Shown in pieces: positions 12,719 to 30,529 of a DNA stretch of 46,809 nucleotides. The notes under the pieces were generated by a model. It was given only the letters and a program-made list of their open reading frames with translations, was not told where the DNA came from and ran no database searches. Position 1 is the stretch's first letter. Every line of letters starts with the position of its first letter. The translations under genes were made by a program, and so were the position numbers. Source of the stretch: an uncultured Candidatus Saccharibacteria bacterium (lineage in GTDB: Bacteria; Patescibacteriota; Minisyncoccia; UBA6257; GWB1-50-10); contig CAYISE010000003.1 of NCBI GenBank assembly GCA_964366055.1, positions 1-46,809 on the forward strand. The letters are read 5' to 3'.

Positions 12719-12733
12719 TTAACTTGTTGACAC

Positions 12734-13022: not shown

Positions 13023-13031
13023 TGATAGAAT
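13023..13031 (+). promoter_or_regulatory. Extended -10-like box TGATAGAAT 7 nt upstream of the ATG at 13039
   Basis: Read directly. There is no Shine-Dalgarno between the box and the ATG. Confidence 0.4.
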
Positions 13032-13038
13032 CCCTCGT

Positions 13039-13371
13039 ATGAGAAATGAGGATTTAAAGGAAATAAAGGAAAAATTAATCTCTGAAAAGACAAAAATAGA
13101 GAGGAATCTGTCTAAACTTAAGGAGGAGCTGGACTTCGGAGACGACGTTGACCACAACGAGGAGGAGACCGACGAGACGGAAGAAATGGGGACATATTTA
13201 AGCGTTAAGAAAACCCAGGACGCCCGCCTCCAACAAATCAATAAAGCGATTGAAAAGATAAAAAACGGCGCCTACGGCCTCTGTGAAAAGTGCGGCGGCC
13301 CGATTGAGCAGAGAATCCTGGATATAGACCCCGAATCGTTCTACTGTAAGGAGTGCAAGCGCGGACTTTAA
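13039..13371 (+). CDS. DksA/TraR family C4-type zinc-finger protein
   Basis: 110 aa with an acidic coiled-coil N-terminus and the motif CEKCGGPIEQRILDIDPESFYCKECK. The track ORF from 12853 extends into the structured non-coding island and was trimmed to the ATG at 13039. Confidence 0.8.
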   Translation: MRNEDLKEIKEKLISEKTKIERNLSKLKEELDFGDDVDHNEEETDETEEMGTYLSVKKTQDARLQQINKAIEKIKNGAYGLCEKCGGPIEQRILDIDPESFYCKECKRGL

Positions 13372-13373
13372 AA

Positions 13374-14912: not shown

Positions 14913-14920
14913 GTCGGTGG

Positions 14921-15613
14921 CTACTTGCTCACCGCGAACGGGTTTTTCGCGCCGTAGACCTCAAAATGAAGATGGCAGCCGGTCGGTCCGTGAGTATTTC
15001 CCGTGCTTCCCATTACGCCGATTTCTCCACCGCGATTCACATAATCGCCAACCCTGACAATGGCCTTATCCAAATGAGCGTAACGGGTCTTCGTGCCGTT
15101 CGGATGTTCCAAAAGAACAAATATCCCGTAGCCATCATTCCAACCGCTTGAACCGTCGCCGAAATTCTCATCCGCCACCACCAGTCCTTCCGCCGCCGCG
15201 TGAACCGAGGCGCCGCATTGATTGGCAATATCCACCGCGTTGTAATTGTGAAGTTCTCCCCAATTCCAGCCGATAGCCGGCAAAGCGAAATAGTTCTTCA
15301 GGTCGGGCAGGTTCGCGCCCGCGGAAGGGAGTTGAACCCGGGAAGCCAAATCGGTTTTGACGTTGCCCTTCTTTTCTTTGTATTTAAAATTGCTTAGGGG
15401 ATCGGAGGCGCCTGCGATGGCGCTGTTTTCTATAAAAAAGTTCCCGCCGTTGCCGCCCGAATTGCCGTTTCCCGGATAAACAACATCTCCCCGAAAGGAG
15501 GATTGTTCTGCCTCCGATTTTCCGACGGGGCCGCCCGAGTTCCAAATAATCGGCTTGGCATAGACCTCAATTCTTTGCCAAGACCAAAAACCCAGCGCGT
15601 TGAAGCCGAGCAA
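14921..15613 (-). CDS. M23 family (LytM-like) peptidoglycan metallopeptidase
   Basis: Has HNYNAVDI, GYGIFVLLEHPNGTKTRYAHL and GSTGNTHGPTGCHLHFEV motifs. The only canonical start in frame is TTG at 15613, inside the predicted N-terminal TM segment, so the start is uncertain. Confidence 0.85.
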   Translation of the reverse strand: MLGFNALGFWSWQRIEVYAKPIIWNSGGPVGKSEAEQSSFRGDVVYPGNGNSGGNGGNFFIENSAIAGASDPLSNFKYKEKKGNVKTDLASRVQLPSAGANLPDLKNYFALPAIGWNWGELHNYNAVDIANQCGASVHAAAEGLVVADENFGDGSSGWNDGYGIFVLLEHPNGTKTRYAHLDKAIVRVGDYVNRGGEIGVMGSTGNTHGPTGCHLHFEVYGAKNPFAVSK

Positions 15614-15861
15614 CGCGATGACAAAAAGGAGCGACCAGAAACTGGTCGTCTGAAATGCCCTCTTAAAAAGGGGCTTTATTTGGACTAGAATCGTACTGAT
15701 GGATTCATTATACCAAAAATCCGACGCATTTCAATATCTTGTGCCAACGAAGTATGCCAGCAATATACCATGCGCTAGAACAGCGTCTCTGATTTCGCCC
15801 GAAAACACTTCCTCTTTTTGAGGGATGAGAGGGCGGAGCAAGGGGGGTGCAAATAAAAAAG

Positions 15862-16674
15862 ATGACTACCAGAAAAAGTTTAGGTCAGAATTTTTTGACC
15901 AATAAAAATAAAATAAGGGAGATTGTGGCGGCGCTCGGACTTGAGGGGAACGAGACGGTGATAGAAATTGGGCCGGGACACGGGGAACTGACGAGAGAGC
16001 TAATTAAGACGCCTCTTGCGCGATTCATAGCAATAGAGAAAGATCCCGCGTTGGCGGTCTCACTCAAGAGAAATTTCCAATTATCAATTTCCAATTTCCA
16101 AACTCCAAAAATTGAAATAATGGAGGGTGATGCTTTAAAAATACTTCCCTCGTTGATTGAAAATTGTAAATTGAAAATTGAAAATTACAAGGTAGTTGGC
16201 AATATCCCTTTCTATATCACGGGATTTCTCTTAAGAGTATTGAGCGAGCTAGAACCAAAACCTGAGAGAATCGTTTTAACGGTCCAAAAGGAGGTGGCGG
16301 CGAGAATCGCCGCCCGGCCGCCCAAGATGAACCTGCTCGCCGCGAGCGTTCAGTTCTGGGCCGAACCGGAGATAACGGGAATTATTCCCAAAAGCGATTT
16401 TTCGCCCCAACCTAAGGTGGATTCGGCGATTTTAAAAATCACCCCGAAGAAAACGGGCGCGAAACCGGAAAATTATTATCCCCTCATTAAAACGCTTTTC
16501 AAACAGCCGCGCAAAACGATTCTCAATAATCTTCTCGCGGGATACGCCATACCAAAGGAAAAATTGATAAAAATCCTTGAATTAGCGAATATCAACCCAA
16601 ACGACAGACCTCAAAATCTTGGCTTAAATAACTTTTTTAATTTTCTCCATCGCCTAGAAACCGGTTCCGACTAA
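15862..16674 (+). CDS. rsmA: 16S rRNA (adenine1518/1519-N6) dimethyltransferase RsmA/KsgA
   Basis: LGQNFL motif, SAM-binding VIEIGPGHGELT, and GNIPFYIT. The ATG at 15862 is preferred over GTG at 15847. Confidence 0.9.
   Translation: MTTRKSLGQNFLTNKNKIREIVAALGLEGNETVIEIGPGHGELTRELIKTPLARFIAIEKDPALAVSLKRNFQLSISNFQTPKIEIMEGDALKILPSLIENCKLKIENYKVVGNIPFYITGFLLRVLSELEPKPERIVLTVQKEVAARIAARPPKMNLLAASVQFWAEPEITGIIPKSDFSPQPKVDSAILKITPKKTGAKPENYYPLIKTLFKQPRKTILNNLLAGYAIPKEKLIKILELANINPNDRPQNLGLNNFFNFLHRLETGSD
16072..16106. repeat. Heptanucleotide repeats inside rsmA: AATTTCC AATTATC AATTTCC AATTTCC AAACTCC
   Basis: Read directly. In frame, encoding ...NFQLSISNFQTPK.... Confidence 0.85.
16156..16190. 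repeat. Heptanucleotide repeats inside rsmA: ATTGAAA ATTGTAA ATTGAAA ATTGAAA ATTACAA
   Basis: Read directly. In frame, encoding ...LIENCKLKIENYK.... Confidence 0.85.
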
Positions 16675-16679
16675 TAACT

Positions 16680-16699
16680 CACTTCAATTGATTGAAGTG
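16680..16699. repeat. Inverted repeat CACTTCAAT-TG-ATTGAAGTG (copy 1 of 2)
   Basis: 9-bp arms with a 2-nt centre, 28 nt upstream of the paralogue B start. Followed by TGATATAAT at 16703-16711. Confidence 0.85.
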
Positions 16700-16726
16700 A
16701 TTTGATATAATAAAAACGATTTATAT

Positions 16727-17104
16727 ATGGTTCGGGTCAATAAAAAATATTTGGGAGAAGAACTGCGGAACGCGGCTTGGCGGCATTTTTTGGAAGTGGT
16801 AAAAAGTTCCGAATCGGAGAAGACCCTGGTGGAAAACCTGCACAAGTTTTTGACCGATGCCGAAACAATAATGGTTGAAAAACGGCTTACGATTCCGATT
16901 CTTCTAGAACGCGGCTTAAGTTATGCGGCGATCGGCAAAACGATAGATGTCAGCCCAGGCACGATCAGTTTCGTAAAACACAATCTCGTGAGAAAACCAG
17001 TAGTGCGCCGCAAATACAGCTCAAGCATGACCCGCAAACCCAAAGAGAAACCGTTTTTTATTCCGTCGCGCGCGGAACACGGTCGGCGATTTCATCGGAT
17101 ATAA
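16727..17104 (+). CDS. TrpR/YerC-YecD-like helix-turn-helix protein (paralogue B)
   Basis: 125 aa. Collinear with ORF 816-1199 (MxRVNKK...ELRxAAWR...EKRLxIxxLLERGxSYxxIGxxxDVxxxTISFVKHNL...RKY). Confidence 0.7.
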   Translation: MVRVNKKYLGEELRNAAWRHFLEVVKSSESEKTLVENLHKFLTDAETIMVEKRLTIPILLERGLSYAAIGKTIDVSPGTISFVKHNLVRKPVVRRKYSSSMTRKPKEKPFFIPSRAEHGRRFHRI

Positions 17105-17156
17105 ACATAAAAACGGGGATATTAATAAAACACCGGTAATGCTGGCGTTACAAGCC

Positions 17157-17182
17157 GGGCACTTCAGTTGATTGAAGTGCCC
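17157..17182. repeat. Inverted repeat GGGCACTTCA-GTTGAT-TGAAGTGCCC (copy 2 of 2; shares the CACTTCA/TGAAGTG arms with 16680-16699)
   Basis: 10-bp arms. Located 53 nt after the paralogue B stop and about 150 nt upstream of the VirB4 operon. Confidence 0.85.
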
Positions 17183-17328
17183 AGAATTAAAATGATTCCG
17201 ACAAAACTGCTTTTGTTCGCTCTAAAATTCTCATTTTCCATTCCTATTAGAATCACCAAATCATGCGATCGGCTTTAAATGTTGTATACTGATGTTATGC
17301 CCCGCAATAAAAGGGTGTGTTTGCTTGT

Positions 17329-18123
17329 ATGAAAAAACGGAGAATAATTTCCGCCGCCGTTGTATTAAGCGGGCTGGCTCTTTTTTTGGTGATAATCAAC
17401 TGGCCCGATAAAAACGCTCAAAAATCGGCGGCGGGGAGCGTTTCAAACCGAGCCGGCGATGCCTCGGGGCTGGAATTTCAAGTCAACCGAGACCGCAATT
17501 TGGTAACGAACCCGGCCGCCGCGGAGAAAAAAGCGGCCAGCTCCGATAATTTAACCGACCGGCTGGCCCAAAATTTGTCGCAAAACATTCTTCAGATGAA
17601 CAACAGCTTCAATTCGGGACAGGGCACCTCAACCGTGAAACTCCCCTCGCCGGATTCCTTGACCAGCATGATTGGACAATCTATAGGCGGGCAAAGTATT
17701 CAGTTTCCGACCTTCAGTGAAAAGGATATTCGGCTCAATCCCGATAATTCCACTGACGCCCAACTCGCCTATATCAAGACGCTGGGAGAAATAACTAAAA
17801 AGAACTTCGCCGGTTTTAACACACCCGTTCTGACCATCCTGAATAATTTTTTTGAGCAGAATAATTCCGAGGCGCTCGCCAAGTATGTGGCTATCGCGGG
17901 AAATCAAATTAATGACCTTCTCGCGCTTAAGGTGCCGACCCAACTTTCCGCCTGGCACCTCCAAAATCTGAATCTGTGGGAAAAGAAATTAGCGGTCTAC
18001 AAAGCCATTCTGGATTTGAACGCCGACCCGCTCAAGGCCGCCTTGGCGATTCAGGAAGTTAACGGCATCGGACAGGAAAACGAGAGTATTCAAAAAGTGT
18101 TAAATGATTTCGCGAAGAAATGA
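17329..18123 (+). CDS. Hypothetical N-terminally anchored protein (first gene of the VirB4-type operon)
   Basis: MKKRRIISAAVVLSGLALFLVII signal/anchor followed by a mostly helical domain. A TATACT box lies at 17284-17289. The stop overlaps the next start (ATGA). No family recognised. Confidence 0.6.
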   Translation: MKKRRIISAAVVLSGLALFLVIINWPDKNAQKSAAGSVSNRAGDASGLEFQVNRDRNLVTNPAAAEKKAASSDNLTDRLAQNLSQNILQMNNSFNSGQGTSTVKLPSPDSLTSMIGQSIGGQSIQFPTFSEKDIRLNPDNSTDAQLAYIKTLGEITKKNFAGFNTPVLTILNNFFEQNNSEALAKYVAIAGNQINDLLALKVPTQLSAWHLQNLNLWEKKLAVYKAILDLNADPLKAALAIQEVNGIGQENESIQKVLNDFAKK

Positions 18124-19664
18124 TAAATACAAATCAAAAATTTATCAGAGCGGTTTTCGCGGGCGCGCTCGCAGTGATTATGATTATTCAAATCTACCCC
18201 ACCACAACCGCATACGCCGGCATACCTTTTTCTCCTGTTGATGTTGTCACCGACCCTGTCCACACGGCATTAACTGCGGGTGGTTGGGTAGCGGAGGCCG
18301 GTCGTTTCATTTGGGACAAGATTTTAAGTGTGGCGCTCCAGGCCCTGAAAAAACGGCTTTTGGACACCATGACCGACCAGATAGTGGGGTGGATCAACGG
18401 GGGCGGGAAACCCAAGTTCACTACCGATTTTGGGAGCGTATTCACGGATGCCGCCGACGCGGCGGTCGGCGATGTCCTTCAGCAATATGCCAGCACGAAA
18501 GCCCTCTGCCAGCCCTTCGCTTTTAACATTCAGCTCCAGCTTCAAAAACCAGCGCCGCTCTCCCAGCAAGTGACTTGCTCCCTGACCAGCGTGATAAGCA
18601 ATTTTAAGGCCTACCGCGATAATTTTGAAAATGGCGGCTGGCTCGGCTATCAGGAACTTTTGAAACCCCAGAACAACCAATGGGGCGCGGAGATTATCAC
18701 CCAGGACGAGATATTAAACCGCACCGCCCGGAAAACCAGCGAAAATGTTCTCCGACAACAGATAAATGTCGGCTTTAACAGCGAGGAATGTACGGGCGGA
18801 TGGGATGTATTTGATAAAAGAACAAGAGCTCCATTTAAAGCGGCTAATGGCGAACTGGGTTATAGGCATCAGCCCCCCGATCCTGACCATTCCCGTGCCC
18901 CGAACGACCCGCCACCCACACCGGATCCAACCAATCCAAATCTTGAATACGTATGCGCTAAGGCCACAGTTACTACGCCGGGCGGACTTCTTGCCGAAGG
19001 TTTAAAAAAATCCACTTATAAAGAATTTGATCTGGTCATCAATTCAACGGACTTAACTAATTCTCTCGCGATTATCGCCGACGCGGCCTTCAATAGACTT
19101 ATCAGCGCGGGTGTTAAGGGGCTTAAGGATATATTCAACCCAGCCAACCCGCCAACCACCGTGCCGCAAGACCTAAGGGACGCGGACAGGAGCTATCGGG
19201 ATACCCAAAGTCAGATTACCCGCGACACCTATCTCTCCCAATTAAACCCCGCCAAGGAGGCCGCCCGCTCGGCCCAATCCACGCTTACTCTCGCTTCCGA
19301 AACCAATCAAACCGTGATTGACACGGCTAATGAACTGCTGACTTGCAACGCTAATCCGACCGACCTCACATTCGCTCAAAACGCGATAAGTGTGGCGAAT
19401 TCAACCGAACAAACCATAATCAAAAAGTCCGAGGAGGTTGAATCGGCTATTACGACTCTGGACAACTTCATTTCAAGCGTGGGACGTTGCGCGGACATTA
19501 GCTGTCTCTCACAGATAAATCAGCAGAATATGAATAAAGCCATCAGCGCCGCGACCGGTTTGAACATTGAGGCGAATAACCTTCTTCTTGGCGCTCAAAA
19601 CACCCTGACCGAAATTCAAAAACGCAAGATGAGCAACAATTGCCCCGTTTCAAACACGCCGTAA
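18120..19664 (+). CDS. Hypothetical large exported/anchored protein (514 aa)
   Basis: N-terminal TM, a Pro-rich insert (PPDPDHSRAPNDPPPTPDPTNP) and a C-terminal helical region. Translationally coupled to both neighbours. No family recognised. Confidence 0.6.
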   Translation: MINTNQKFIRAVFAGALAVIMIIQIYPTTTAYAGIPFSPVDVVTDPVHTALTAGGWVAEAGRFIWDKILSVALQALKKRLLDTMTDQIVGWINGGGKPKFTTDFGSVFTDAADAAVGDVLQQYASTKALCQPFAFNIQLQLQKPAPLSQQVTCSLTSVISNFKAYRDNFENGGWLGYQELLKPQNNQWGAEIITQDEILNRTARKTSENVLRQQINVGFNSEECTGGWDVFDKRTRAPFKAANGELGYRHQPPDPDHSRAPNDPPPTPDPTNPNLEYVCAKATVTTPGGLLAEGLKKSTYKEFDLVINSTDLTNSLAIIADAAFNRLISAGVKGLKDIFNPANPPTTVPQDLRDADRSYRDTQSQITRDTYLSQLNPAKEAARSAQSTLTLASETNQTVIDTANELLTCNANPTDLTFAQNAISVANSTEQTIIKKSEEVESAITTLDNFISSVGRCADISCLSQINQQNMNKAISAATGLNIEANNLLLGAQNTLTEIQKRKMSNNCPVSNTP

Positions 19665-21172
19665 TGGAAAAAATAATCCGAAATAAAAAGTTCATTCTGT
19701 TAATTATCTCGGGGGGCTTGCTCGGGCTCGTTCTCTTTCTCATTCCTCATTCCGCCGAAGCCGGCCTTTTCAGCATAGACGGCATTGCCGCGAGCGTGGT
19801 CACTTTCGCTTTCAAGATAATCGCCTCTATTTTTAATTTCATTTTCGGTTTTTTCTTTATGCTGGCGGGATGGCTGGTCACCATCGCCTTAACGTTAAAC
19901 AGTCAGATTCTCATGGATTCAAACGCGCTGGTGAAAATCGGCTGGACCATCACTCGCGACGTGGCTAACTTGGGCTTCGTCCTGATTATGATTATTATGG
20001 CGGTCGCGACCATCGTCCGTTATGGAAAATACAGCGTTCAGAAGCTGCTTCCACTTTTAATCGGCGCCGCCATTCTGGTCAATTTCAGTTTAACCATCGC
20101 CGGCGTTCTGATAAAATTCTCCGATATCGTTTCCGCCACATTTACGGAAAAACTGAATGCCGGCAACATCACCGACGCCCTGGCCGGCGCCTTCAGCCCC
20201 CAGCGTCTGCTTCTGAAGGACACGGAGAATTTGTCGCCGCCCGACCCCGCCGAGCAGGGCGGCAGCTTCGGCGGTTTTTCCTCCGCGGTTCTGGTCAGCA
20301 TCTCCGGACTTGTTTTTAACGTTGTCTTTTTAGCCATAGCCACTTTTTCAATGGCTGCGGTCGCGCTGATGCTTCTCTATCGGTATATAGCTCTGTCAAT
20401 CCTGCTGATTCTCGCGCCGCTCGCGTGGCTTTTCTGGGTCTTCCCGGATTTGCAAAATCTTTTCCACGATTGGTGGGGAAAGTTCATAAAATGGACCTTC
20501 TTTTTGCCGGCCACCACCTTCTTCCTTTATTTGGCCGTGCAGGCGGCCAGCGCGCTGAAAGACAGTAAAATGTTTCTGGGGAGTATTTTTACCACCAGCG
20601 GTTTAGCTGAAGTTATGGCGCAAGGCGCGCAGATGATAGTCCTGACCGGCTTGCTTTTGGGCGGGCTCATCGCGGCCCAAAAAATTGGTGTCGCGGGAGC
20701 GGCGGGGGCGATGAAGCTGGCGGAGAAAGCCGGTCGGGGGGCCAGAAAGGGATTAGGCACTTACGCTCAAAACAAATCAGCGAGAGCAACGGCGGTATTA
20801 TTAAATACTCCTCCTCTTAGAGCGGCAAGATTGGGAGTAATAAGAGCTGGCCGTAAACTTAAGGGTGTGGGTGCCACATCTGGACCAATAGCCAAATTTT
20901 TCTCCAGACCGCTAAGGAGCGCCGGGAGAGGACTTGAGGGAACCGGAGGAAAGGTGAGTGGTTTTGCAAGTAAAAAAAGGCAACCCGCCAGTCTTTTTGG
21001 TTCGGTGTTAAAGGGCGTCTATTCATCAGTATCCGGGAAAAGACAATGGCAATGCGGCACATGCGGTACCGTTGTGGGCCCGAGTAAAAACCCTCCGTCA
21101 AAGTGTCCAAATCATACGTGTCAAACTAACGTAGCGGGGTCCGGCGTTAATCTTTCATGGAGGACTCTTTAA
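19664..21172 (+). CDS. VirB6/TrbL-like polytopic membrane protein with a basic tail and C-terminal zinc ribbon
   Basis: At least 6 predicted TM segments and operon context with VirB3/VirB4-like genes. The tail is rich in K/R/G/A and ends in CGTCG...CPNHTC. The ATG at 19664 overlaps the upstream stop (TAATG). Confidence 0.55.
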   Translation: MEKIIRNKKFILLIISGGLLGLVLFLIPHSAEAGLFSIDGIAASVVTFAFKIIASIFNFIFGFFFMLAGWLVTIALTLNSQILMDSNALVKIGWTITRDVANLGFVLIMIIMAVATIVRYGKYSVQKLLPLLIGAAILVNFSLTIAGVLIKFSDIVSATFTEKLNAGNITDALAGAFSPQRLLLKDTENLSPPDPAEQGGSFGGFSSAVLVSISGLVFNVVFLAIATFSMAAVALMLLYRYIALSILLILAPLAWLFWVFPDLQNLFHDWWGKFIKWTFFLPATTFFLYLAVQAASALKDSKMFLGSIFTTSGLAEVMAQGAQMIVLTGLLLGGLIAAQKIGVAGAAGAMKLAEKAGRGARKGLGTYAQNKSARATAVLLNTPPLRAARLGVIRAGRKLKGVGATSGPIAKFFSRPLRSAGRGLEGTGGKVSGFASKKRQPASLFGSVLKGVYSSVSGKRQWQCGTCGTVVGPSKNPPSKCPNHTCQTNVAGSGVNLSWRTL

Positions 21173-21192
21173 GTGTTTAAAAATAAATCATT

Positions 21193-22125
21193 ATGATTGT
21201 GATAAAAAACGAACAACAGGTAATTGGGGCTTATGAAAAATTACCGCCCAAAATTCAAGAAGCCATTGATGCAATTTCGAACCTTGAGATAATTCAAAAA
21301 ATATCAAGGAAATACAAATTAAGCGGGGACGACGGGGAAACTCTTGAGATGTTCACCGGATTTACTCTTTTGGGTTTTATCCGCCCCAAGAATCTCTTGG
21401 ATGAGGTGGCGCCAATTCTTGAGGTTAAAGAACAAACCTTAGTTGAAATATTAAAAGAAATAAATCGAGAAATATTTTTGCCCCTCCACGATGATTTCCA
21501 AGTTCTCTACCAATCTCAAACATCGTCTTGGGAAACTAACGAGGAAGAACAAGAAACTAATCTTAGAATAAAGATTTTCGAGGGGGGGAGGAATGAAAAA
21601 AAATCATCCACCGAAACAAAAGTGATAGAAATAAATGAGTTGGGGTTGGGAAAAGAAGAACGCGGAGAAGAAAAATCAGTTCCAATCAGTTCCAACGCCC
21701 CCTTCATCCTTCACGAGGAAAAGAGCGCGGGGACCGTGGCGGGGGGAAGAAAATCAATTTTGAAAAGTATTGCCATCCCGCTCGGCTTCTTCAAATCAAA
21801 AAACCAATTATCATCTCAACCGGCTAAACCAATAAGAGTGGAGATTGAAATACCTAAAAGCGAGAAGCGGGTGGTAAATTACAGCGAGTTAAGAAGCTCG
21901 CTCTCGCCCTTTGAGAATCAGGATTTTATCAATATTGGGAGTATCAATGAACAAAAAACTTCCGCAATCATTCCAGAAATTCCTAAACCCGTGGAACCGG
22001 CGCCCGCGCCTAAAATTCCGGAAAAACCGGCGGCGCCGGAGGAAAAATCGGAAATCCTGGGCACGATTAAAAAACCCGAACCGAAAATAGAAGGAAACAC
22101 GATAGATTTAAGTCCCATAAAATGA
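21193..22125 (+). CDS. Hypothetical protein (310 aa) with an acidic middle and a Pro-rich C-terminus
   Basis: Clean ORF in the operon. No family recognised. Confidence 0.55.
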   Translation: MIVIKNEQQVIGAYEKLPPKIQEAIDAISNLEIIQKISRKYKLSGDDGETLEMFTGFTLLGFIRPKNLLDEVAPILEVKEQTLVEILKEINREIFLPLHDDFQVLYQSQTSSWETNEEEQETNLRIKIFEGGRNEKKSSTETKVIEINELGLGKEERGEEKSVPISSNAPFILHEEKSAGTVAGGRKSILKSIAIPLGFFKSKNQLSSQPAKPIRVEIEIPKSEKRVVNYSELRSSLSPFENQDFINIGSINEQKTSAIIPEIPKPVEPAPAPKIPEKPAAPEEKSEILGTIKKPEPKIEGNTIDLSPIK

Positions 22126-22601
22126 ATTTTCAGGTTCCCCAATTCATAGAGCAGAAGCCGAAAATCGTCGGGTTTTTGACCCTGTTTCAATTTCTGTATC
22201 TGGCCGGCGTCGCTCTGCTCGGATACGTTTCCTTTTACGTCTTCAATTTCTTTCTGGCTCTCATAATAACCGTGTTCGCCGGTCTCGTCGGCCTCGCCCT
22301 CGCCTTCGTAAAAATCAACGGCCAGGAGTTCCCCCGAATCGTCATAGCGGTTTTCAGCTACCTGTGGAATCCCAAAATCTACGTCTGGCAAAGGCAAACG
22401 CTTCAGTCCTCCGTAAATATCAAAGAGATGGAGAATTTGAGAAATAAGATGGGCCTCCAAGAAAAATTAAAATCCGTCGCCTTAAACATCACTACCGGAA
22501 AATTTTTCAGCCGGAAACAAAAAGCGGGGGATGAAGAAAAATACGAAACGGTGGTTTTCCTCACGGGCGAGCGAAAAACCGCCAAGCGGGTGGACTACTG
22601 A
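22122..22601 (+). CDS. PrgI-family (VirB3-like) membrane protein
   Basis: FQVPQFIEQKPKIVGFLTLFQFLYLAG followed by two TM segments matches the Gram-positive PrgI/VirB3-like pattern. Lies immediately upstream of the VirB4-like genes. Confidence 0.6.
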   Translation: MNFQVPQFIEQKPKIVGFLTLFQFLYLAGVALLGYVSFYVFNFFLALIITVFAGLVGLALAFVKINGQEFPRIVIAVFSYLWNPKIYVWQRQTLQSSVNIKEMENLRNKMGLQEKLKSVALNITTGKFFSRKQKAGDEEKYETVVFLTGERKTAKRVDY

Positions 22602-22633
22602 ATAATTTTATAATTTTGTAATACAATAACCAC

Positions 22634-23269
22634 ATGGCTGACATTCCAAAACCATCTCAACAATTCGTCCCGATAAAAGAGATTAAAAACGGGATTCTTT
22701 ATCTGAAAAATGGCGGTCTCCGTCAGTTGTTGATTGTGAGCGGGATTAACTTTGAACTGAAATCCGAAACCGAGCAAAATTTGATTTTGGGCGGCTTTCA
22801 GAATTTCCTGAACGCGCTGGACTTCTCCGTCCAGTTCTTCATCCACTCCCGAAAAGTGAACGTGGACGGATACCTCGCGAAGATGGGGGAGCGGAAAACC
22901 GAGGAATCAAACGAGCTCCTGAAAATCCAAATTGACGAATACATAAATTTCATCCGGAGCTTTGTGGACCAGAACGCCATCATCAGCAAAACATTCTTCG
23001 CGGTCGTTCCCTACGACCCCGCGGGTTTGCCGACCGCCACTAAGGGGTTTTTGGGACTTTTCAAAAAGAGCGCGCCCACGACCGAAAAAAATCTCACCGA
23101 AAAAGACAATTTGGAACAGCTCCAGCACCGCGTGGAACAAGTTACGGAGGGGCTGAACCAAATCGGCCTCCGGGCCGCCCCGCTCGGGAACGAGGAGACC
23201 ACGGAACTGTTTTATAATTTGTATAATCCGCAATTGGTTGATAAAAAAACTTTAAATATAGCCAAATAA
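22634..23269 (+). CDS. virB4: VirB4-like ATPase, N-terminal domain encoded as a separate ORF
   Basis: QFVPIKEIKNGILYLKNGGLRQLLIVSGINFELKSETEQ resembles the N-terminus of Gram-positive VirB4/TraE/PrgJ proteins. Ends with TAA TAA. Confidence 0.6.
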   Translation: MADIPKPSQQFVPIKEIKNGILYLKNGGLRQLLIVSGINFELKSETEQNLILGGFQNFLNALDFSVQFFIHSRKVNVDGYLAKMGERKTEESNELLKIQIDEYINFIRSFVDQNAIISKTFFAVVPYDPAGLPTATKGFLGLFKKSAPTTEKNLTEKDNLEQLQHRVEQVTEGLNQIGLRAAPLGNEETTELFYNLYNPQLVDKKTLNIAK

Positions 23270-23273
23270 TAAA

Positions 23274-25031
23274 ATGGATATCAAAATTCCCAAAGCGTAC
23301 AAGCCCGGTGCGGAAGATGTTCCGAACATCATCGCGCCCGCCGGATTGGATATCAACAGCAATTATCTAAAAATCGGGGATTATTACACGAAAACCTTCT
23401 TCGTTTTCACCTACCCTCGCTATCTCTCCTCCAGCTGGTTTTCTTCCGTCATCAATCTACCGGAGATGATGGATATTTCCATTTTTATTCATCCGATGGA
23501 CACCGCGCTCGCGCTCCGAAATCTCCGCAAAAAAGTGGCCCAGATAGAGGCGGAGGTCAGCGAAAAAGAGGAGAAGGGAATCGTCCGGGACCCGGTGCTG
23601 GAAACCGCCTATCAGGATGTGGAGTCATTGAGAGACGCGCTTCAGCAGGCGAGGGAAAAACTTTTTGAGGTCGGTATTTATTACACCCTCTACAGCCAAA
23701 CCCAGGAAGAACTAGCGAGAATGGAAGACCGGGTGACCAACCTTTTGGAAAGCCGGCTGGTTTATGTGAAACCCGCCCTCTTCAAACAAAAGGAGGGGCT
23801 GACCTCGGTTTTCCCTCTGGGGAAAGACGAATTGGAAATTAAAACCCCCCTGAACACCGGTCCGGCCTCCTCCATCTTCCCCTTCGTCTCGCCGGACCTT
23901 TCCTCGGAAAACGGAATAATGTTCGGCATCAACATGCACAACAACGGTCTGATAATCTTTGACCGATTTTCGCTGGAAAACGCCAATATGGTTGTCTTCG
24001 CCAAGGCCGGCGCCGGCAAATCCTACGCCATCAAACTCCAAATTTTAAGGTCTCTGATGACGGGAACCAACATAATTGTGATTGACCCGGAAAACGAGTA
24101 TCAAAATCTCGCCAATGCCATCGGTGGCAGTTATTTCAAAATCTCGCTCACCTCCCAAAGCCACGTCAATCCCTTTGACATCCCGATTATGCCGGAGGGG
24201 GAGGAGCCGGCCGACGTTTTTAAGTCCCACATTTTGAATCTCACCGGTCTCGTGAAACTGATGCTCGGGGAAATCAAACCCGAAGAAGAGGCGCTCCTGG
24301 ACCGGGCCATTACCGAGACCTACGCCTCGCGCGACATCACCGCCGAGAACTTCGGTTCCATTAAAGAATTGAATCCGCCGCGATTGGAGGACCTGCAGGT
24401 GATTTTAGAAAACACGGAGGGGGGACGAACGCTCGCCCAGCGGCTGGATAAGTTCACCCACGGCTCCTACGCGGGCTTCACCAACGCGCCCACGAACGTG
24501 GATATCAAGAACCGCCTGATTGTTTTCTCCATCCGCGACCTGGAGGAAGAACTCCGTCCCATCGCGATGTACATCGTCCTGAACTTCGTTTGGAGCATGG
24601 TCCGTTCCGAATTAAAGCGGCGCCTGCTGGTGATAGACGAGGCGTGGTGGATGATGAAATACAAGGACTCCGCCTCTTTCCTTTTCGGTTTGGTCAAAAG
24701 GTGCCGCAAATATTATCTGGGGGTTACCACCATCACCCAGGACGTGGACGATTTCATAAAATCCGAGTACGGCCGGCCAATTATCACCAACTCCTCCATG
24801 CAGATACTTATGAAGCAGTCCCCATCAAGTATAGAAACCGTTTCCAAGGCCTTTGACCTGACCGACGGAGAAAAGACCTTTCTATTGGAGGCCGGCGTGG
24901 GCGAGGGACTTTTCTTCGCGGGCCTGAAGCATGTCGCCGTCAAAGTGATTGCCTCCTACACCGAGGACCAGATTATCACCACCAACCCCGAACAGATGTT
25001 GGAGATAAAAGGATTAAAAGAGGGAAAATGA
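23274..25031 (+). CDS. virB4: VirB4-like ATPase, C-terminal NTPase part
   Basis: Walker A VVFAKAGAGKSY, Walker B RRLLVIDEAWWMM, and ITQDVDDF. The two ORFs total 796 aa, which is the length of a full VirB4. Confidence 0.8.
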   Translation: MDIKIPKAYKPGAEDVPNIIAPAGLDINSNYLKIGDYYTKTFFVFTYPRYLSSSWFSSVINLPEMMDISIFIHPMDTALALRNLRKKVAQIEAEVSEKEEKGIVRDPVLETAYQDVESLRDALQQAREKLFEVGIYYTLYSQTQEELARMEDRVTNLLESRLVYVKPALFKQKEGLTSVFPLGKDELEIKTPLNTGPASSIFPFVSPDLSSENGIMFGINMHNNGLIIFDRFSLENANMVVFAKAGAGKSYAIKLQILRSLMTGTNIIVIDPENEYQNLANAIGGSYFKISLTSQSHVNPFDIPIMPEGEEPADVFKSHILNLTGLVKLMLGEIKPEEEALLDRAITETYASRDITAENFGSIKELNPPRLEDLQVILENTEGGRTLAQRLDKFTHGSYAGFTNAPTNVDIKNRLIVFSIRDLEEELRPIAMYIVLNFVWSMVRSELKRRLLVIDEAWWMMKYKDSASFLFGLVKRCRKYYLGVTTITQDVDDFIKSEYGRPIITNSSMQILMKQSPSSIETVSKAFDLTDGEKTFLLEAGVGEGLFFAGLKHVAVKVIASYTEDQIITTNPEQMLEIKGLKEGK

Positions 25032-25369
25032 ACAAATATAAAAAAATAGGCGAGGCGGAAATGATTATCGGGATAGGTTTATCCTTTCTGGTTTATTTTT
25101 TCTGTTTTCTTTTAGATTTTACAGGAATCGGGGCGGTGATCACGCCATTTATAGAAAGCTTTTTCACCTTCGGGACATGGCTGTTTTTCAAAAACAAGGG
25201 CGACCCCTTCGCCAACAGGGTTGGCGCGAATATCGCCCAATATGCCGCGAATTTGATTCCCTTCATACCGTCAATCGTGATTGCTTTTATAACCAAGGTT
25301 TATATCCATAATCATCCCAAAACCCTCGCCGCGGCGGGAAAGGTCGCGGGCGCGGCGACAAAAATATAA
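25028..25369 (+). CDS. Hypothetical small polytopic membrane protein (113 aa)
   Basis: Three hydrophobic segments. ATGA overlap with virB4. Confidence 0.5.
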   Translation: MNKYKKIGEAEMIIGIGLSFLVYFFCFLLDFTGIGAVITPFIESFFTFGTWLFFKNKGDPFANRVGANIAQYAANLIPFIPSIVIAFITKVYIHNHPKTLAAAGKVAGAATKI

Positions 25370-25370
25370 A

Positions 25371-26054
25371 ATGAATATTTTAAAGATTATTGCCTGCGGA
25401 GGACTGGTTATGACGCTGGTTTTTATCCCACTTAAATCCGTGGCTCAAACAACCGTCAATCCGCTCATCATCACCTGGCAAGCCAATAATTACTTTCCCG
25501 CCGACTACAATGGCAAGGCGCTTGTGACCCCCAACACTCTCGTTATCGCCTCGGCGGAATTAGTCCAGAACGGCAAGCTCGCGGACATCACCGGGGCCGA
25601 CATCCGCTGGTATGTGGGCAATGAGCTGGCGGCGAGCGGCGCGGGTTTCAAGACCCTGTCCTTTTCCGCCCAACAGCGGCCGACAGGTTATCAGGCGCTC
25701 CGGGTTTCAATAAAATCCGGCAACAGCTCATTTGAAAATTCAATCCAAATTCCGATCTCCCAGCCGAACGTGGTGATAAGCATTCCTTCTCTGGGAAAAA
25801 CGGCGAAAGCGGGAAGCCAGATTACCCTTCAAGCTATTCCCTTCTTCTTCAACGCCGACTCCCTCCGGTATCTCACATTTGACTGGCAGATAAACAACCG
25901 GAGAGTGACCGGCGAGGGGAATAAAGTCACTGTGAAGGTGGGGACGCCACAGTCGGTTTATCAAAATTCAATTCCGGTTTCGGTGACGGTCCAGAATTCC
26001 GATAATCCCTATGAATTCAACAAGGGTTTTATAATGCTGTCCATAATCCAATGA
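25371..26054 (+). CDS. Hypothetical secreted protein with two beta-rich repeats
   Basis: Signal peptide (...IPLKSVAQT) followed by two similar roughly 90-aa segments. No family recognised. Confidence 0.55.
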   Translation: MNILKIIACGGLVMTLVFIPLKSVAQTTVNPLIITWQANNYFPADYNGKALVTPNTLVIASAELVQNGKLADITGADIRWYVGNELAASGAGFKTLSFSAQQRPTGYQALRVSIKSGNSSFENSIQIPISQPNVVISIPSLGKTAKAGSQITLQAIPFFFNADSLRYLTFDWQINNRRVTGEGNKVTVKVGTPQSVYQNSIPVSVTVQNSDNPYEFNKGFIMLSIIQ

Positions 26055-27751
26055 AATTCGGAAAAATAATCCTGCTGTTTTCAATTCTCGGCTTTTTGTT
26101 TTTCTCGGCCGGAGAATTTTACGCCCGTGCGGCGGAATCGAAGCCAATCGTGAATGTGGATTTTCCGTGCCCGAGCGGTTTGGGTTTGGGAGATTGCCAG
26201 CCGACCACCGACATCCCGAGTTATCTCAACAACCTCTATAAATTCGCGGTCGGAATCGCGGGACTCCTGGCTTTGGGAATGATTGTCGCGGGCGGGGTCT
26301 ATTACACCGTCTCGGCCGGCAGCGGCGACAAACAGCGGGAGGCGAAGAGTATGATTACCTCCGCCCTTTTGGGCGTGGCGCTTCTTTTGGGGTCTTATCT
26401 GGTTTTAAACACCGTTAATCCGCAAATCACCACGTTAAAATTACCGGAATTAGAAAATATAACCGCCACCTCAAATCTAGCCGCCGAGGGCGTTCAGACA
26501 ACACCAAATGAGTGCGTAGACCCCTCGGATAAAACGTTTAATAGCATTCCATCTTATCCTCGCAACACAAGCACGGAAAACTGCGCCTATCGCAAAATGA
26601 TAATCAAGGATTCTATTTCAATCAGCAGTGATTTTGATCTTTTCTATGACGAAGGCGAAACTATCCCCGCCGGGGCGACCATCTGGCAATATCCGTATTT
26701 CATCGGCCAAAGCGTCGTACTCTTTAACGGACTCCCCGGTAACGTCAGTCAAATGGCCGGTTCCTCCCACGCGCAATGCTTGATTTACGCTTACAGAAAA
26801 CCCAACACCCCCAACACCCCTAAAGAGGAGCCGGTATTCATAGACCTCAAACCATTTCTAAGACTTTGCGCGCCACGCCAGCAATCCTTTAATGTAGCCC
26901 AAGCAACCTGTAATGACTGGACCTTTGAGGGTGTAAAAATAGGTGACCCACCAAGCGCAAAAGACATACGCCCGGTGCATGTGGACGCGAACTTCAACTG
27001 GAGCGATCCGGCGGTACGCCCCACGCGTACTGTTAATACCGCCACCACCAGAGACCCGGAAATTGAGGCAACACGTGACGGGATAGTAGATCCTAGCGTA
27101 AGGACGGCTATAACACAGTCGTCCATCACATTGCTTATCAATCCACCTGGCGTGACAGGTGTAGTATATAAAACGAAGAAATGGACATGCTACAACACTA
27201 CCTCTCCCGCCCCCGGGATTACTATCGGCGATGATTTGACACCCATTACAGATTCGGAAGCGCTCTTAATGGAGGGGGATGAGGGGAAGGGGGGCCAGAA
27301 GATTCTTTGGCCATCCTCCAATCCCAATCTTAAAATCGCTGTGGATGCCCTCAAAAACATCGCATCGCCGCTTGGGTATACCGTTACCGTTAACTCCGCC
27401 TATCGTCCCACGGCATACCAAGCGCACCTATATGAATTGAATGAACTTTGGAACAAATTGAGAGGCACGTTTCCCGCCGCTGCTTCCCCCGAAGCAGCGC
27501 TCAAAGATAAAATATATAATCACATGACAAATCACGCCCTTAGGACGGACGGTCAACAGGTTGTGGCAAGACCGGGAACATCGCCGCATGAAACGGGAAT
27601 CGGGGTTGACCTCTGTGTAACAAAGGGAGGCGGAGGATGTATCAAAGAATTAGATGGAATTAACGATTTATTAAGAACAAATAGAATTAATCTCCGATGG
27701 CAAAAAATCCAGTACGATGAGATTCACTTTAACTATTACACTTGGCCATAA
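26051..27751 (+). CDS. Fusion protein: T4SS-pilin-like (VirB2/TrbC-like) N-terminal domain plus C-terminal M15/VanY-like zinc peptidase domain
   Basis: The N-terminus has a signal peptide, then IPSYLNNLYKFAVGIAGLLALGMIVAGGVYYTVSAGSGDKQREAKSMITSALLGVALLLGSYLVLNTVNP, which is the CPR T4SS-pilin pattern. The C-terminus has NSAYRP, SPHETGIGVDL and DEIHFNY, matching LAS/M15 metallopeptidase motifs. Confidence 0.65.
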   Translation: MKFGKIILLFSILGFLFFSAGEFYARAAESKPIVNVDFPCPSGLGLGDCQPTTDIPSYLNNLYKFAVGIAGLLALGMIVAGGVYYTVSAGSGDKQREAKSMITSALLGVALLLGSYLVLNTVNPQITTLKLPELENITATSNLAAEGVQTTPNECVDPSDKTFNSIPSYPRNTSTENCAYRKMIIKDSISISSDFDLFYDEGETIPAGATIWQYPYFIGQSVVLFNGLPGNVSQMAGSSHAQCLIYAYRKPNTPNTPKEEPVFIDLKPFLRLCAPRQQSFNVAQATCNDWTFEGVKIGDPPSAKDIRPVHVDANFNWSDPAVRPTRTVNTATTRDPEIEATRDGIVDPSVRTAITQSSITLLINPPGVTGVVYKTKKWTCYNTTSPAPGITIGDDLTPITDSEALLMEGDEGKGGQKILWPSSNPNLKIAVDALKNIASPLGYTVTVNSAYRPTAYQAHLYELNELWNKLRGTFPAAASPEAALKDKIYNHMTNHALRTDGQQVVARPGTSPHETGIGVDLCVTKGGGGCIKELDGINDLLRTNRINLRWQKIQYDEIHFNYYTWP

Positions 27752-27757
27752 ACATCC

Positions 27758-28945
27758 ATGAAACCCTTCATCAAAATCGGCTTAATCATTTTTATCCTAA
27801 TCGTCGCGGGCCTGATTGTTTATTTTGTCTGGTCGGCTTTGGTGGCGCCTCCGCCGGAAATTCCGGCGCCTCCCGTGTCAAACGTGTCAAATCTCCCGAC
27901 CGCGCCATTAGAAGGAGAGGGGGAAATCAATCAACTCCCGGGCGAACCCAGTCCAACTCAAGTGATTCCCGCGCTCGCCAAAATTTCCGAGAACCCGGTC
28001 TTTGATTATTGGGTTGATTCCCAGACGCGGGAAGTTTACTATCTGAACCCCGAGGGCCAGATTTTCTCCGCCAAAAACGGCGAGGATTTACAGATTACCC
28101 AGCAGAAACTGAACGCCCCGAATTTCATTGAACTGTCGGGGAACGGCCAGCGGGTGCTGGCGGCCTTCGGCGACCCGCGCCTGCCCCAGTGGGGGATTTT
28201 TGACGTGATTGACAGGGCCTGGCGGCCTCTGCCAGATGGAATTTTGAACGCGACCTGGGGCGAGAACAGCAACACCCTCATTGGTTTCGTAAAAAACGGG
28301 AGCAATATAAATCTCTCAACCATCAACCTCTCCCAGGGCCAGCCCGTTTATAAGGTGATTGCGAAAGACCTTCGCCTCCAGGACGTAAAAATAACTTTTT
28401 CTCCCCCGAACGGCGTCATTATTCAGGAGAGGCCGTCCGTGAACTACCCGGTCCGGGTCTGGAGAATGAGTATCAAAGACCTGTCCTTCCATTCTCTTTT
28501 CTCTCCGGAAAACGGCCTCACGATAAAATTGTCCGGCGACAAGACGACCCTGCTCGCTTTTTCAAACAGTAACGGTTTCCGGATTCTAAATGCCGATACC
28601 CTGGGTCTTGTCTCCCCGGTGCCCTTTTCCACCCTGCCCGCCAAGTGCTCGCCCGACTCCGCGGTCATTTACTGCTTCGTCCCGAGCGACGATAACTTCA
28701 AAAAGGCCTCTCTGCCAGATGATTATCTTGAGCAGAAATTCTTTACCTCCGATTCTCTTTATAAAATTGACCTAATTACCGATGAGGTGGCTCCGGTCGC
28801 TATTCCTCAAAACGCGGCCCTGGGCCCGATTGACGCCAAAAACCCACTGGTAAACGGCGGAAAACTTTATTTTATAAACCAATATGACAACTCAATATAC
28901 GCGCTTAGCTTCGGGTTGGGACAAGACGGGATATTAGGCGATTAA
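27758..28945 (+). CDS. Hypothetical N-terminally anchored, beta-rich protein (395 aa)
   Basis: N-terminal TM, a Pro-rich linker and a long beta-rich domain. Last gene of the operon; its 3' end overlaps jag by 12 nt (convergent). Confidence 0.55.
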   Translation: MKPFIKIGLIIFILIVAGLIVYFVWSALVAPPPEIPAPPVSNVSNLPTAPLEGEGEINQLPGEPSPTQVIPALAKISENPVFDYWVDSQTREVYYLNPEGQIFSAKNGEDLQITQQKLNAPNFIELSGNGQRVLAAFGDPRLPQWGIFDVIDRAWRPLPDGILNATWGENSNTLIGFVKNGSNINLSTINLSQGQPVYKVIAKDLRLQDVKITFSPPNGVIIQERPSVNYPVRVWRMSIKDLSFHSLFSPENGLTIKLSGDKTTLLAFSNSNGFRILNADTLGLVSPVPFSTLPAKCSPDSAVIYCFVPSDDNFKKASLPDDYLEQKFFTSDSLYKIDLITDEVAPVAIPQNAALGPIDAKNPLVNGGKLYFINQYDNSIYALSFGLGQDGILGD

Positions 28946-29365
28946 CTGGATGACGATGTGGCGATCTTTTCCCACTCCCACGCTTTCGGTTTTTAAGTCG
29001 GGGTGAGTGGAAATCTCCACGTGAATCAGCCGGCGTTCGTAGGCATTCATGGCGGGGAGGGCCACCTCGCCTTTGGTTAAAATCGCTTTCTTCGCCGCGG
29101 CCTTCGCTAATTCAACAATTAATCGCTCTCGCTCCCGGCGGTAATAGTTAATGTCTAAAACATGGGCGGGAAGATTCTCGCGATGAGCGAACAAGCCCAC
29201 CAAATGTTCAATAGCCGGTAAAATCGTCGCCACGTTGGCGCGAATCAGTTCATCGTCCACCATCACCGATACTTTGCGGTGCTCGTCTTCCACCGTCACC
29301 TCGGCCTCCGGAAATCCCATTAGAGCGAGGAGGTTTTGAATTTTCTCTCTTAATTCCGTAGGCAT
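28934..29365 (-). CDS. jag: Jag/KhpB-like KH + R3H domain RNA-binding protein
   Basis: R3H motif YERRLIHVEIS. Conserved position downstream of yidC. Confidence 0.8.
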   Translation of the reverse strand: MPTELREKIQNLLALMGFPEAEVTVEDEHRKVSVMVDDELIRANVATILPAIEHLVGLFAHRENLPAHVLDINYYRRERERLIVELAKAAAKKAILTKGEVALPAMNAYERRLIHVEISTHPDLKTESVGVGKDRHIVIQLIA

Positions 29366-29479: not shown

Positions 29480-30163
29480 TCAAACACTTTCCGAAGCGGT
29501 TATTTTTTTATTGATGTAAAATTGCTGGCCGATGGAAAATAAATTTGAGACCGTCCAATAAAGACCAATGGCCGCGGGCAGATTAAACAGAACCACCACC
29601 GTGAGAATCGGCCCCGCGTACATCATGATTTTTTGATTGGCCGCCATCGGGTCCTTGGCGCTCTCCTTCTCCTGGGGGGGTTTTGAAACCATAATCATCC
29701 TGGTTTGGAGATATTGAAACAGGGCCGCCGCCACCGCCAAGAGCGCGCTTTTCTCATCCAAATTTATTAAACCCAAAAAAGACCGGCTTAAAAAGACCAG
29801 GGCGGAGATCTCCTTCGTAAAAATCCCAAAGAGCGCGATAAAAACCGGCAACTGCAAAATTATAAAGAAGATGCTGGAGAACGGGTTCACGCGGTGCTTT
29901 TTATAAAGCGCCATAAGTTCTTTGGCTTGCCGTTCCTTATTGTCCTTGTGATCCAGTTGAATTCTTTTCACGTGGGGCTGAATTTTCTGAATAATGGTCT
30001 GGTCTTTGGCGCCCTTATAAAAAATGGGGAGGAGTACCAACCGGACAAGAATCGTCAGAATGATTATCGCAAAACCAAGGTCGTGAAACGAGAGGTTTTG
30101 ATAAATAAAAACCAGGAGCCATAAAATCGGCTGATAAATGTAGGTGTTGAATAGCGCGGTCAT
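29480..30163 (-). CDS. yidC: Membrane protein insertase YidC (short Oxa1-type)
   Basis: FAIIILTILVRLVLLPI, KELMALYKKHRVNPFSS and LYWTVSNLFSIGQQ motifs. Confidence 0.92.
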   Translation of the reverse strand: MTALFNTYIYQPILWLLVFIYQNLSFHDLGFAIIILTILVRLVLLPIFYKGAKDQTIIQKIQPHVKRIQLDHKDNKERQAKELMALYKKHRVNPFSSIFFIILQLPVFIALFGIFTKEISALVFLSRSFLGLINLDEKSALLAVAAALFQYLQTRMIMVSKPPQEKESAKDPMAANQKIMMYAGPILTVVVLFNLPAAIGLYWTVSNLFSIGQQFYINKKITASESV

Positions 30164-30390
30164 TTTAAAATATGCTTCTTTAACTCGGCGAAGCCCAGTT
30201 TTTCCGTTGGTGGCTTGGCAATCACCAAAAAACTGCTCCCGGTTTTCTTTGAGACGGGGAGTAGGATTGACCGAATCCTTCTTTTTAAAAGATTGCGCTC
30301 GGTCGCCTTTTTAAATATCTCTTTGCCTACAATAACCGTCACGGGTCTGTTTTTGCGGTTGATGGACCTGGTTTTTATTATAAAACGCAC
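30160..30390 (-). CDS. rnpA: Ribonuclease P protein component RnpA (very short, 76 aa, GTG start)
   Basis: ATERNLLKRRIRSIL motif. Sits between rpmH and yidC. Overlaps yidC by 4 nt. Confidence 0.75.
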   Translation of the reverse strand: MRFIIKTRSINRKNRPVTVIVGKEIFKKATERNLLKRRIRSILLPVSKKTGSSFLVIAKPPTEKLGFAELKKHILK

Positions 30391-30391: not shown

Positions 30392-30529
30392 TTAAACCGA
30401 GAGTTTTTTTCTGCTCCTTTGCCGGCGCCTCCGTAGAATGCTTCTTCCTCCCGGCGTGCGACTGCGTTTCAAAAAACCGTGCGTCCGGCCGCGTTTTCTT
30501 TTCTTTGATTGATACGTTCTTTTGGGCAT
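30392..30529 (-). CDS. rpmH: 50S ribosomal protein L34
   Basis: Not in the ORF track because it is under 60 aa. My translation of the - strand gives [45 protein letters not shown], followed by a stop. Confidence 0.93.

Follow-up and report, generated by a model that had tools for sequence, protein, structure and literature searches.

A 46,809-nt stretch of patescibacterial DNA (contig CAYISE010000003.1; hereafter the window) encodes eleven co-directional open reading frames (ORFs), g1–g11, on the + strand at 17329–28945. We read this block as a type IV secretion system (T4SS). It is very probably the chromosomal T4SS of a Paceibacteria/Minisyncoccia cell (Parcubacteria, Jorgensenbacteria-like), of a Patescibacteria-specific lineage derived from the MPF_FATA conjugation machinery of monoderm bacteria. 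Five gene products are recognisable T4SS parts: g3 (VirB6/TrbL-like), g5 (PrgI/VirB3-like), g6 and g7 (together a split VirB4) and g10 (a VirB2-type pilin). The locus is the published Patescibacteria T4SS, for which a chromosomal, origin-proximal, relaxase-less setting, TrsD with VirB4, PrgI, VirB6 and a VirB2-like pilin have all been reported. An earlier note, made from the same DNA by sequence reading alone, had inferred a resident, minimised envelope-spanning machine. That inference holds but breaks no new ground, since the system's relaxase-less, origin-proximal nature and the hypotheses of host contact, import and effector delivery are in print (PMC12102498, PMC10633639, PMC12857230, PMC11665869). 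Not previously described are six conserved, unnamed partner proteins (g1, g2, g4, g8, g9 and g11) and the fusion of the pilin to a cell-wall peptidase.

The coordinates and junctions of the eleven ORFs were confirmed, with overlaps or gaps of at most 32 nt as first noted. From g1 to g11, the junctions measure -4, -1, +20, -4, +32, +4, -4, +1, -4 and +6 nt, and the genes make up a single, translationally coupled module. An alternative GTG start for g1 is possible at 17317. The end of g11 (28945) overlaps the convergent jag/R3H gene (28934–29365, - strand) by 12 nt.

The VirB4 motor ATPase, with its middle and C-terminal P-loop domains, is g7 (23274–25031, +). It matches NCBIfam NF045971 at 373 bits (cut-off 325) and P-loop_TraG at 99 bits, and carries the Walker A (AGAGKS) and Walker B (LLVIDEAWW) motifs on which the ATPase had originally been called. 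Relatives of this VirB4 were sought by scanning one genome per GTDB species; 161 were found and the best 80 used. These 80 fall in Minisyncoccia, Paceibacterota and Ca. Jorgensen-, Brenner-, Wolfe-, Colwell- and Harrisonbacteria. g7 is 57–88% identical to the VirB4 of the 80 Patescibacteria loci and at most 35% identical to any plasmid VirB4. Judged by profile hidden Markov model (HMM) score and identity, it is a monoderm MPF_FATA, CD1110-type VirB4 that probably belongs with those of Patescibacteria. A scan of IMG/VR for VirB4 relatives found none.

The N-terminal domain of VirB4 is encoded as an ORF of its own, g6 (22634–23269, +), which ends 4 nt upstream of g7. It matches NCBIfam TrsD (5e-8), the N-terminus of VirB4_plasma (residues 104–220, 4e-9) and the N-terminus of VirB4_CagE. 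The earlier note was right that VirB4 spans two ORFs, but this is no novelty: TrsD plus VirB4 is a known arrangement, and a single ORF of ~716–803 amino acids (aa) replaces g6 and g7 in distant Paceibacteria relatives (L056, L057, L059, L060, L065, L072, L073, L075 and L076). The fused match region lies at ~9300–11750, or the equivalent, in those loci. Because the split is kept in ~60 loci and g6 matches TrsD, it is not a frameshift or lesion. The fused ORF of the distant relatives makes the two-ORF state a derived, clade-specific split.

The PrgI/VirB3-like protein g5 (22122–22601, +) has two transmembrane (TM) helices. Its own Pfam PrgI score of 26.5 bits is slightly below the gathering threshold of 27, and all 22 of its 22 orthologues match PrgI (best 9.4e-11), which upholds the assignment first made by eye. 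A weak match to TraL was also seen. The VirB6/TrbL-like protein is g3 (19664–21172, +), a polytopic membrane protein with ~8 predicted TM helices and a hydrophilic Cys4 C-terminus. The window protein itself has no Pfam match, but two of 26 orthologues match TrbL PF04610 (2.4e-7) and one of 26 matches TrbL_4. The earlier VirB6/TrbL call is thus supported transitively, via the orthologues only, and g3 is a probable VirB6 on that basis. At ~21060–21150 the Cys4 motif CGTCG...CPNHTC resembles a zinc ribbon and sits at the cytoplasmic or hydrophilic end; orthologues of g3 instead have longer, coiled-coil-like C-terminal extensions.

The pilin gene, g10 (26051–27751, +), combines a VirB2-type pilin with a VanY/M15B-type zinc peptidase. 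It encodes a signal peptide, two TM helices (pilin domain, aa 56–113), a Cys-containing middle region and a C-terminal peptidase (aa 427–523), with an invariant N123-P124 after the second helix. The pilin-like domain that had been noticed in this ORF scores 32.6 bits against T4SS_pilin PF18895 (cut-off 26.6), and Pfam VanY scores 31.9 bits (cut-off 25). The canonical zinc motif, ARPGTSPHETGIGVD, ARPGTSPH513ETGIGVD520 ... E557-I-H559, aligns with LdcB/DacB. LdcB has E-x-x-H, and the Glu-His spacing of E557/H559 in g10 is off by one residue. Taken together, the C-terminal domain is a predicted peptidase of the M15B (VanY/LdcB) type.

The pilin half of g10 is nearly constant across orthologues and the enzymatic half is not. 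The pilin domain is present in 29 of 30 orthologues, and TrbC/VirB2 (PF04956) is matched in four. Scanned with an HMM of the pilin domain, the window and almost all related loci show one pilin ORF apiece, and this ORF nearly always carries a C-terminal extension. LAS-type zinc-peptidase motifs (H..G...D, then HxH or E.H) close the tail of ~30 of 58 orthologues. Most of these tails are Hedgehog-like; Peptidase_M23 is found in one orthologue, HH_signal in one and VanY in the window. All 19 weak matches of the g10 profile to the PDB are Hedgehog N-domains. The closest homologues of g10 cover its first 50–67% only, and the VanY module is missing from them. Across species the enzymatic domain at the C-terminus behaves as a swappable cassette that may be VanY-type, Hedgehog/M15A-like, M23 or absent. 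Pilin–peptidase fusions are not mentioned in the main survey of these systems (PMC12102498).

Gene order was compared across Patescibacteria, as the earlier note had proposed. By tblastn with the window proteins, the order ksgA, g1 to g11, jag, yidC, dnaA, dnaN is found in almost every sufficiently long locus. Presence was counted with profile HMMs over 35 species-level Paceibacteria/Minisyncoccia loci with enough flank; the HMMs derive from the same loci, yet matches where single-sequence tblastn failed are independent. Seven families (g2, g3, g4, g5, g6, g7 and g10) are present in 35/35 loci, g1, g9 and g11 in 34/35 and g8 in 28/35. The block is fully colinear in 31 of the 35 loci, and the remaining four merely swap g10 and g11.

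Mobility functions were sought in several ways. No long ORF of the 46.8-kb window has a relaxase, coupling protein (T4CP) or integrase domain; the window has no tRNA and the block no att-like direct repeats around it. Queries with the pCF10 T4CP PcfC, the pCF10 relaxase PcfG and the Tn916 integrase drew a blank by tblastn in the window and in the 80 loci. Matches to the VirB7/VirB9/VirB10 core complex and to VirB11 were also absent from the window. The GC content of the block equals that of its flanks, with no step at the borders. The absences listed in the earlier note (relaxase, integrase, tRNA, flanking repeat, VirB11) are therefore borne out for the window. Its claim of no coupling protein is true of the window, but beyond such loci VirD4 homologues are common in Patescibacteria: 5,713 in 2,918 genomes, just 148 of them near virB4 (PMC12102498).

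These data also decide whether the block might be an integrative conjugative element (ICE) in decay, with relaxase, coupling protein and integrase lost. This VirB4 family is otherwise typical of conjugative elements in Firmicutes, Actinobacteria and Mollicutes, and a VirB4 in two ORFs could resemble decay. However, the 11-gene order sits at one chromosomal site (ksgA ... jag-yidC-dnaA) in 31/35 species-level genomes with its ORFs intact, the split is itself conserved and matches a named family, and neither integration marks nor a shift in GC are found. We give decay almost no credence and rejected it on synteny. As judged from gene order and content, the block is vertically inherited and resident, in agreement with the earlier view of a resident machine rather than a conjugative element.

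The general features of the locus match published surveys. Quinonero-Coronel et al. (2025, PMC12102498) found the Patescibacteria T4SS lineage in 2,417 of 3,035 Patescibacteria genomes, with a VirB4 that forms a monophyletic clade nested in MPF_FATA. TrsD adjoins VirB4 in 1,664 cases, VirB2-like pilins lie near virB4 in 1,135 assemblies, and PrgI/VirB3 and VirB6 are also described. Relaxases are nearly absent and T4CPs are seldom nearby. In Paceibacteria and Microgenomatia the T4SS lies beside dnaA, dnaN, rnpA, ksgA and rpmH. The proposed role is import of DNA or other macromolecules (PMC12102498). Reviews treat the Patescibacteria T4SS as an established new T4SS type (PMC12857230, PMC11665869). 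T4SS pilins are among the top-expressed unknown genes in Paceibacterales co-cultures (PMC10936435).

The best-studied relative is the cluster SEML1_0006-0019 of Southlakia epibionticum. It shares with the window an MPF_FATA VirB4 with a separate TrsD-like ORF, PrgI/VirB3, a VirB6-like protein, a PF18895 pilin and a Hedgehog/DD-peptidase-type wall hydrolase. It likewise has no relaxase or T4CP in the cluster and lies on the chromosome by dnaA, dnaN, rnpA, rpmH and ksgA. In Southlakia, six small pilins stand alone, whereas this locus has one pilin gene, whose product is fused to a peptidase here and in roughly half of its orthologues. Southlakia also has separate large lysozyme/NlpC and DD-peptidase proteins, and its Hedgehog/DD-peptidase is a 1,113-aa protein of its own. 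It has two VirB6-like proteins and a non-essential NTF2-like protein, whereas no NTF2-like protein was detected here. Relative to Southlakia, this locus appears to add g1, g2, g4, g8, g9 and the g11 propeller.

Conjugative T4SSs of monoderm MPF_FATA type (pCF10 Prg/Pcf, pGO1 Trs, CTn2 CD1110 and the Mycoplasma ICE with Mbov_0395/0397) share with the locus a CD1110-family VirB4, PrgI, a TrsD-like N-terminal piece as in pGO1, a wall hydrolase downstream of VirB4 and the lack of VirB7/9/10. Unlike them, the locus has no relaxase, T4CP, accessory DNA-processing genes or PrgB-type adhesin and is chromosomally fixed. Comparison by hhalign of profile HMMs for the eleven families with pCF10 PrgC-PrgM and PcfA-C matched only VirB4, to PrgJ. 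PrgD, E, F, G, K, L and M were not detectable among the eleven families by this comparison, which is a weak one, as even PrgI and g5 failed to match. The earlier suggestion that the partners replace a missing VirB7-10 scaffold takes an unsuitable system as its reference: the VirB4 is MPF_FATA, and this monoderm lineage never had VirB7/9/10 (PMC12102498). The apt comparison for the partners is with monoderm parts of the VirB8, VirB1 or adhesin type.

The closest monoderm counterpart found is on a megaplasmid of Pontibacillus sp. ALD_SL1 (NZ_CP062975.1, ~351-361 kb; L082, locus 9000-20100), where the core genes stand in the same order. Two Mbov_0395-type pilin-like genes match the g10 pilin HMM (~1e-14) and the gene in the PrgI position matches the g5 family HMM (2e-10). 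A separate TrsD-like ORF (6e-42) and VirB4 (4e-149, 33% identity) come next, followed by a 1,050-aa DD-metalloendopeptidase. The annotation shows no relaxase within 15 kb of this cluster, which adjoins flagellar genes. Its host, unlike the cell here, is a free-living Firmicute; its small pilins and its peptidase are separate proteins, and the six partners are all missing. A Pontibacillus core without any of the six suggests that pilin, split VirB4 and peptidase were in place before the Patescibacteria system arose, and that Patescibacteria added the six extras. VirB2-like pilins may accordingly be ancestral to a sub-branch of MPF_FATA, and not co-opted from diderm systems as has been considered possible (PMC12102498).

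The six partners were called unassignable in the earlier note and remain so by family searches. None has a Pfam or NCBIfam family, and Pfam scans of 79 orthologues of g1, g2, g9 and g11 and 34 of g4 and g8 gave no common family. One could suppose that they are envelope genes with no tie to the T4SS other than a common origin-proximal operon: none is detectably similar to known T4SS components, and the Pontibacillus core does without them. Against this, the six are interspersed among the core genes instead of being added on, they overlap them at start and stop codons, and they keep their order across VirB4 divergence down to 57% identity. All but g4 are predicted to have a signal peptide or membrane anchor, as expected for envelope parts. 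Passenger status seems improbable. Because the module in this class regularly includes them, interspersed with the core, the six partners are very likely constant T4SS subunits.

The first partner, g1 (17329–18123, +), is a bitopic membrane protein with one TM helix (aa 6–24), a low-complexity linker and a C-terminal domain, probably a lineage-specific subunit. The second, g2 (18120–19664, +), is an exported or anchored protein of 514 aa, in which a conserved N-terminal domain contains Cys and three long helices form a bundle at the C-terminus. Its very large, unannotated family, at 50% identity, comprises 5,688 representatives at E<=1e-3 and 4,837 at E<=1e-10. The AF2 model of g2 is poor (pLDDT 64.9), notably in the conserved N-terminal domain, with helices 350–505 confident; Foldseek returned generic helical bundles only. 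Profile searches of the PDB with g2, g3, g4 and g9 gave coiled-coil noise only. The most distant homologues of g2 (25–26% identity) lie directly, or one gene, after ksgA; behind them come PrgI, a TraC-like/TrsD piece and VirB4, and at L083, one of two such loci, a pilin gene too.

Three of the partners are encoded on either side of the VirB4 genes. The soluble and probably cytoplasmic g4 (21193–22125, +) has no predicted TM helix or signal peptide. A ~100-aa N-terminal domain is followed by a long, low-complexity, disordered-looking tail, in which the alignment shows conserved short motifs (PFILHEE, PFGFFK.K and KRVVHYSE.RTP.SPF) and an invariant C-terminal end, EGN.IDLR. This make-up is unusual for a member of a T4SS operon; g4 could be an adaptor or a secretion substrate. 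A small membrane protein with 2–3 TM helices, g8 (25028–25369, +), has conserved E11, D30, P78, P81, N95 and an HNHP motif. The secreted protein g9 (25371–26054, +) has a signal peptide; at the gene level, its start is tied to the g8 end, and its 3' end overlaps the pilin gene. The two halves of g9 align with each other (hhalign probability 71%, E 3.6e-5), so the protein may consist of one module repeated in tandem.

The last partner, g11 (27758–28945, +), is predicted to be a TM-anchored beta-propeller, with an N-terminal TM helix, a ~35-aa disordered linker and an extracellular seven-bladed domain. AF2 modelled the seven blades from a 26-sequence alignment with pLDDT 84.6 and pTM 0.76. Foldseek matches to this model are WD40, YVTN and tricorn propellers (E down to 5e-11, TM-score 0.5–0.6, ~12% identity), a generic class in the PDB. 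The predicted fold is a propeller and not NTF2.

These parts suggest how the machine might work. The membrane proteins g3, g5 and g8 would form a platform, and a VirB4 hexamer, to which g6 would lend the N-domain in trans, would dock on it through VirB3/VirB6. VirB4 would then pull g10 from the membrane and polymerise a pilus or stalk, and the peptidase domain of g10 might open the peptidoglycan of its own cell, of the host, or of both. The wall-spanning, host-contact part could be built by g1, g2, g9 and g11, with g4 as a cytoplasmic adaptor or cargo.

The locus has neither relaxase nor coupling protein, so its use is not conjugation. T4SSs that lack a T4CP are biased towards import or two-step export, which is one reason why we lean, tentatively and with somewhat less than even confidence, towards a contact-dependent conduit for importing macromolecules (nucleic acids) from the host. 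Two T4CP-less, T4SS-related DNA-uptake systems, Helicobacter ComB and archaeal Ced, share with it a VirB4-type ATPase and a locus without coupling protein or relaxase. ComB differs in retaining diderm VirB7-10 parts. As for Ced, no CedA-like proteins were identified here, and the CedB match covers the P-loop alone (43 bits against a cut-off of 700). A second reason is that the Southlakia T4SS is essential and comEC is dispensable. A requirement for host-dependent (epibiotic) growth is known from Southlakia alone, by the transposon sequencing (Tn-seq) of Wang et al. (2023, PMC10633639), in which the T4SS genes, including the pilins and the Hedgehog/DD-peptidase protein, are essential and comEC is not. 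A third is that a Minisyncoccota parasite feeds on host RNA, with tubular structures, possibly T4SS pili, at its interface with the host (bioRxiv 10.64898/2026.06.21.733656).

Contact-dependent export of effectors or toxins to the host is a possible alternative, though a less likely one than uptake. Such a system would recruit its substrates either with no dedicated VirD4, as Bordetella Ptl and Brucella VirB do, or with the help of a VirD4 from another locus. T4SS substrates also typically carry C-terminal signals, and g4, mostly disordered-looking and with its invariant EGN.IDLR end, could itself be the translocated substrate. The authors of the Southlakia study favour protein export or an alternative role, as relaxase and T4CP are missing (PMC10633639), and VirD4 homologues occur elsewhere in most Patescibacteria genomes (PMC12102498). 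However, no effector-like gene is linked to the locus, and the distant T4CP of Southlakia is non-essential while its T4SS is essential. The presence of g4 in every one of the 35 loci, positionally conserved like the structural genes, fits a subunit better than cargo. Adhesion, or another role, is about as possible as effector export.

More speculatively, the pilin may be self-armed. A pilus or stalk of g10, with the peptidase displayed or released by cleavage at N123-P124, together with g1, g2, g9 and g11, would then be an extracellular module that has no counterpart in described T4SSs, cutting the host wall and opening a feeding channel. We regard such a new module as rather unlikely.

Several observations weigh against the T4SS reading as set out here, or against parts of it. 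A canonical VirB2 helical pilus may not accommodate the 440-aa C-terminal extension of the sole pilin, unless cleavage removes that extension. About half of the g10 orthologues have no peptidase domain, so the peptidase is not indispensable to the machine. By sequence, g1, g9 and g11 gave no match to a VirB8-like (NTF2) subunit, and no such subunit was recognised. The VirB6 call depends on two or three of 26 orthologues. The result of no coupling protein spans the 46.8-kb window, and a T4CP elsewhere in the genome is possible.

Few machines are known to be indispensable to epibiotic life, and the Patescibacteria T4SS is among them. This locus offers a compact, invariant 11-gene parts list of the Paceibacteria version and shows that a wall hydrolase can be fused to the sole pilin. 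The six partners, including the modelled propeller and g2 with its thousands of unnamed sequences, are targets for structural work and biochemistry.

The block lies among housekeeping genes. On its 3' side, beyond jag, are yidC, rnpA (30160–30390), rpmH (30392–30529), dnaA, dnaN and a class A penicillin-binding protein, with the start of dnaA 1.7 kb from the block end. On its 5' side are ksgA and a small Trp-repressor-like helix-turn-helix (HTH) gene. Elsewhere the window encodes NusA, a MurD-like ligase, Hsp20, PrsW, a class I aminoacyl-tRNA synthetase, TsaD, RecO, RuvC, RuvB, PolA, Fpg, a histidine kinase, a ComM-like Mg-chelatase family protein (13353–14912, +), an M23 peptidase (14921–15613, -) and a PilB/GspE-type ATPase. 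This last ATPase, the window's only one of the T2SSE family (41602–43308, -; 568 aa), was considered as a VirB11 and rejected: its MshEN domain marks it as PilB/GspE-like type IV pilus machinery, 12.6 kb downstream. A ComM-like gene also lies 5' of ksgA in two distant T4SS loci (L083 and L084), the second of which has an M23 peptidase as well. Its recurrence there means that the conserved origin-proximal neighbourhood exceeds the eleven genes.

In no related genome does the HTH gene (16727–17104) stand between ksgA and the T4SS operon. The window has a second Trp-repressor-like HTH gene (816–1199, -), 52% identical to the first and with no adjoining palindrome copy of the kind found beside that one. 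A 20-bp near-palindrome, CACTTCA[A/G]TTGATTGAAGTG, brackets the first gene at 16680–16699 and 17160–17179, the second copy lying 150 nt upstream of g1. Exactly two copies occur in the window, where none is expected by chance, and the palindrome was absent from all 81 loci checked. The pair may mark where something small was inserted, may serve as two terminators, or may be operators through which the HTH regulator is tied to the operon.

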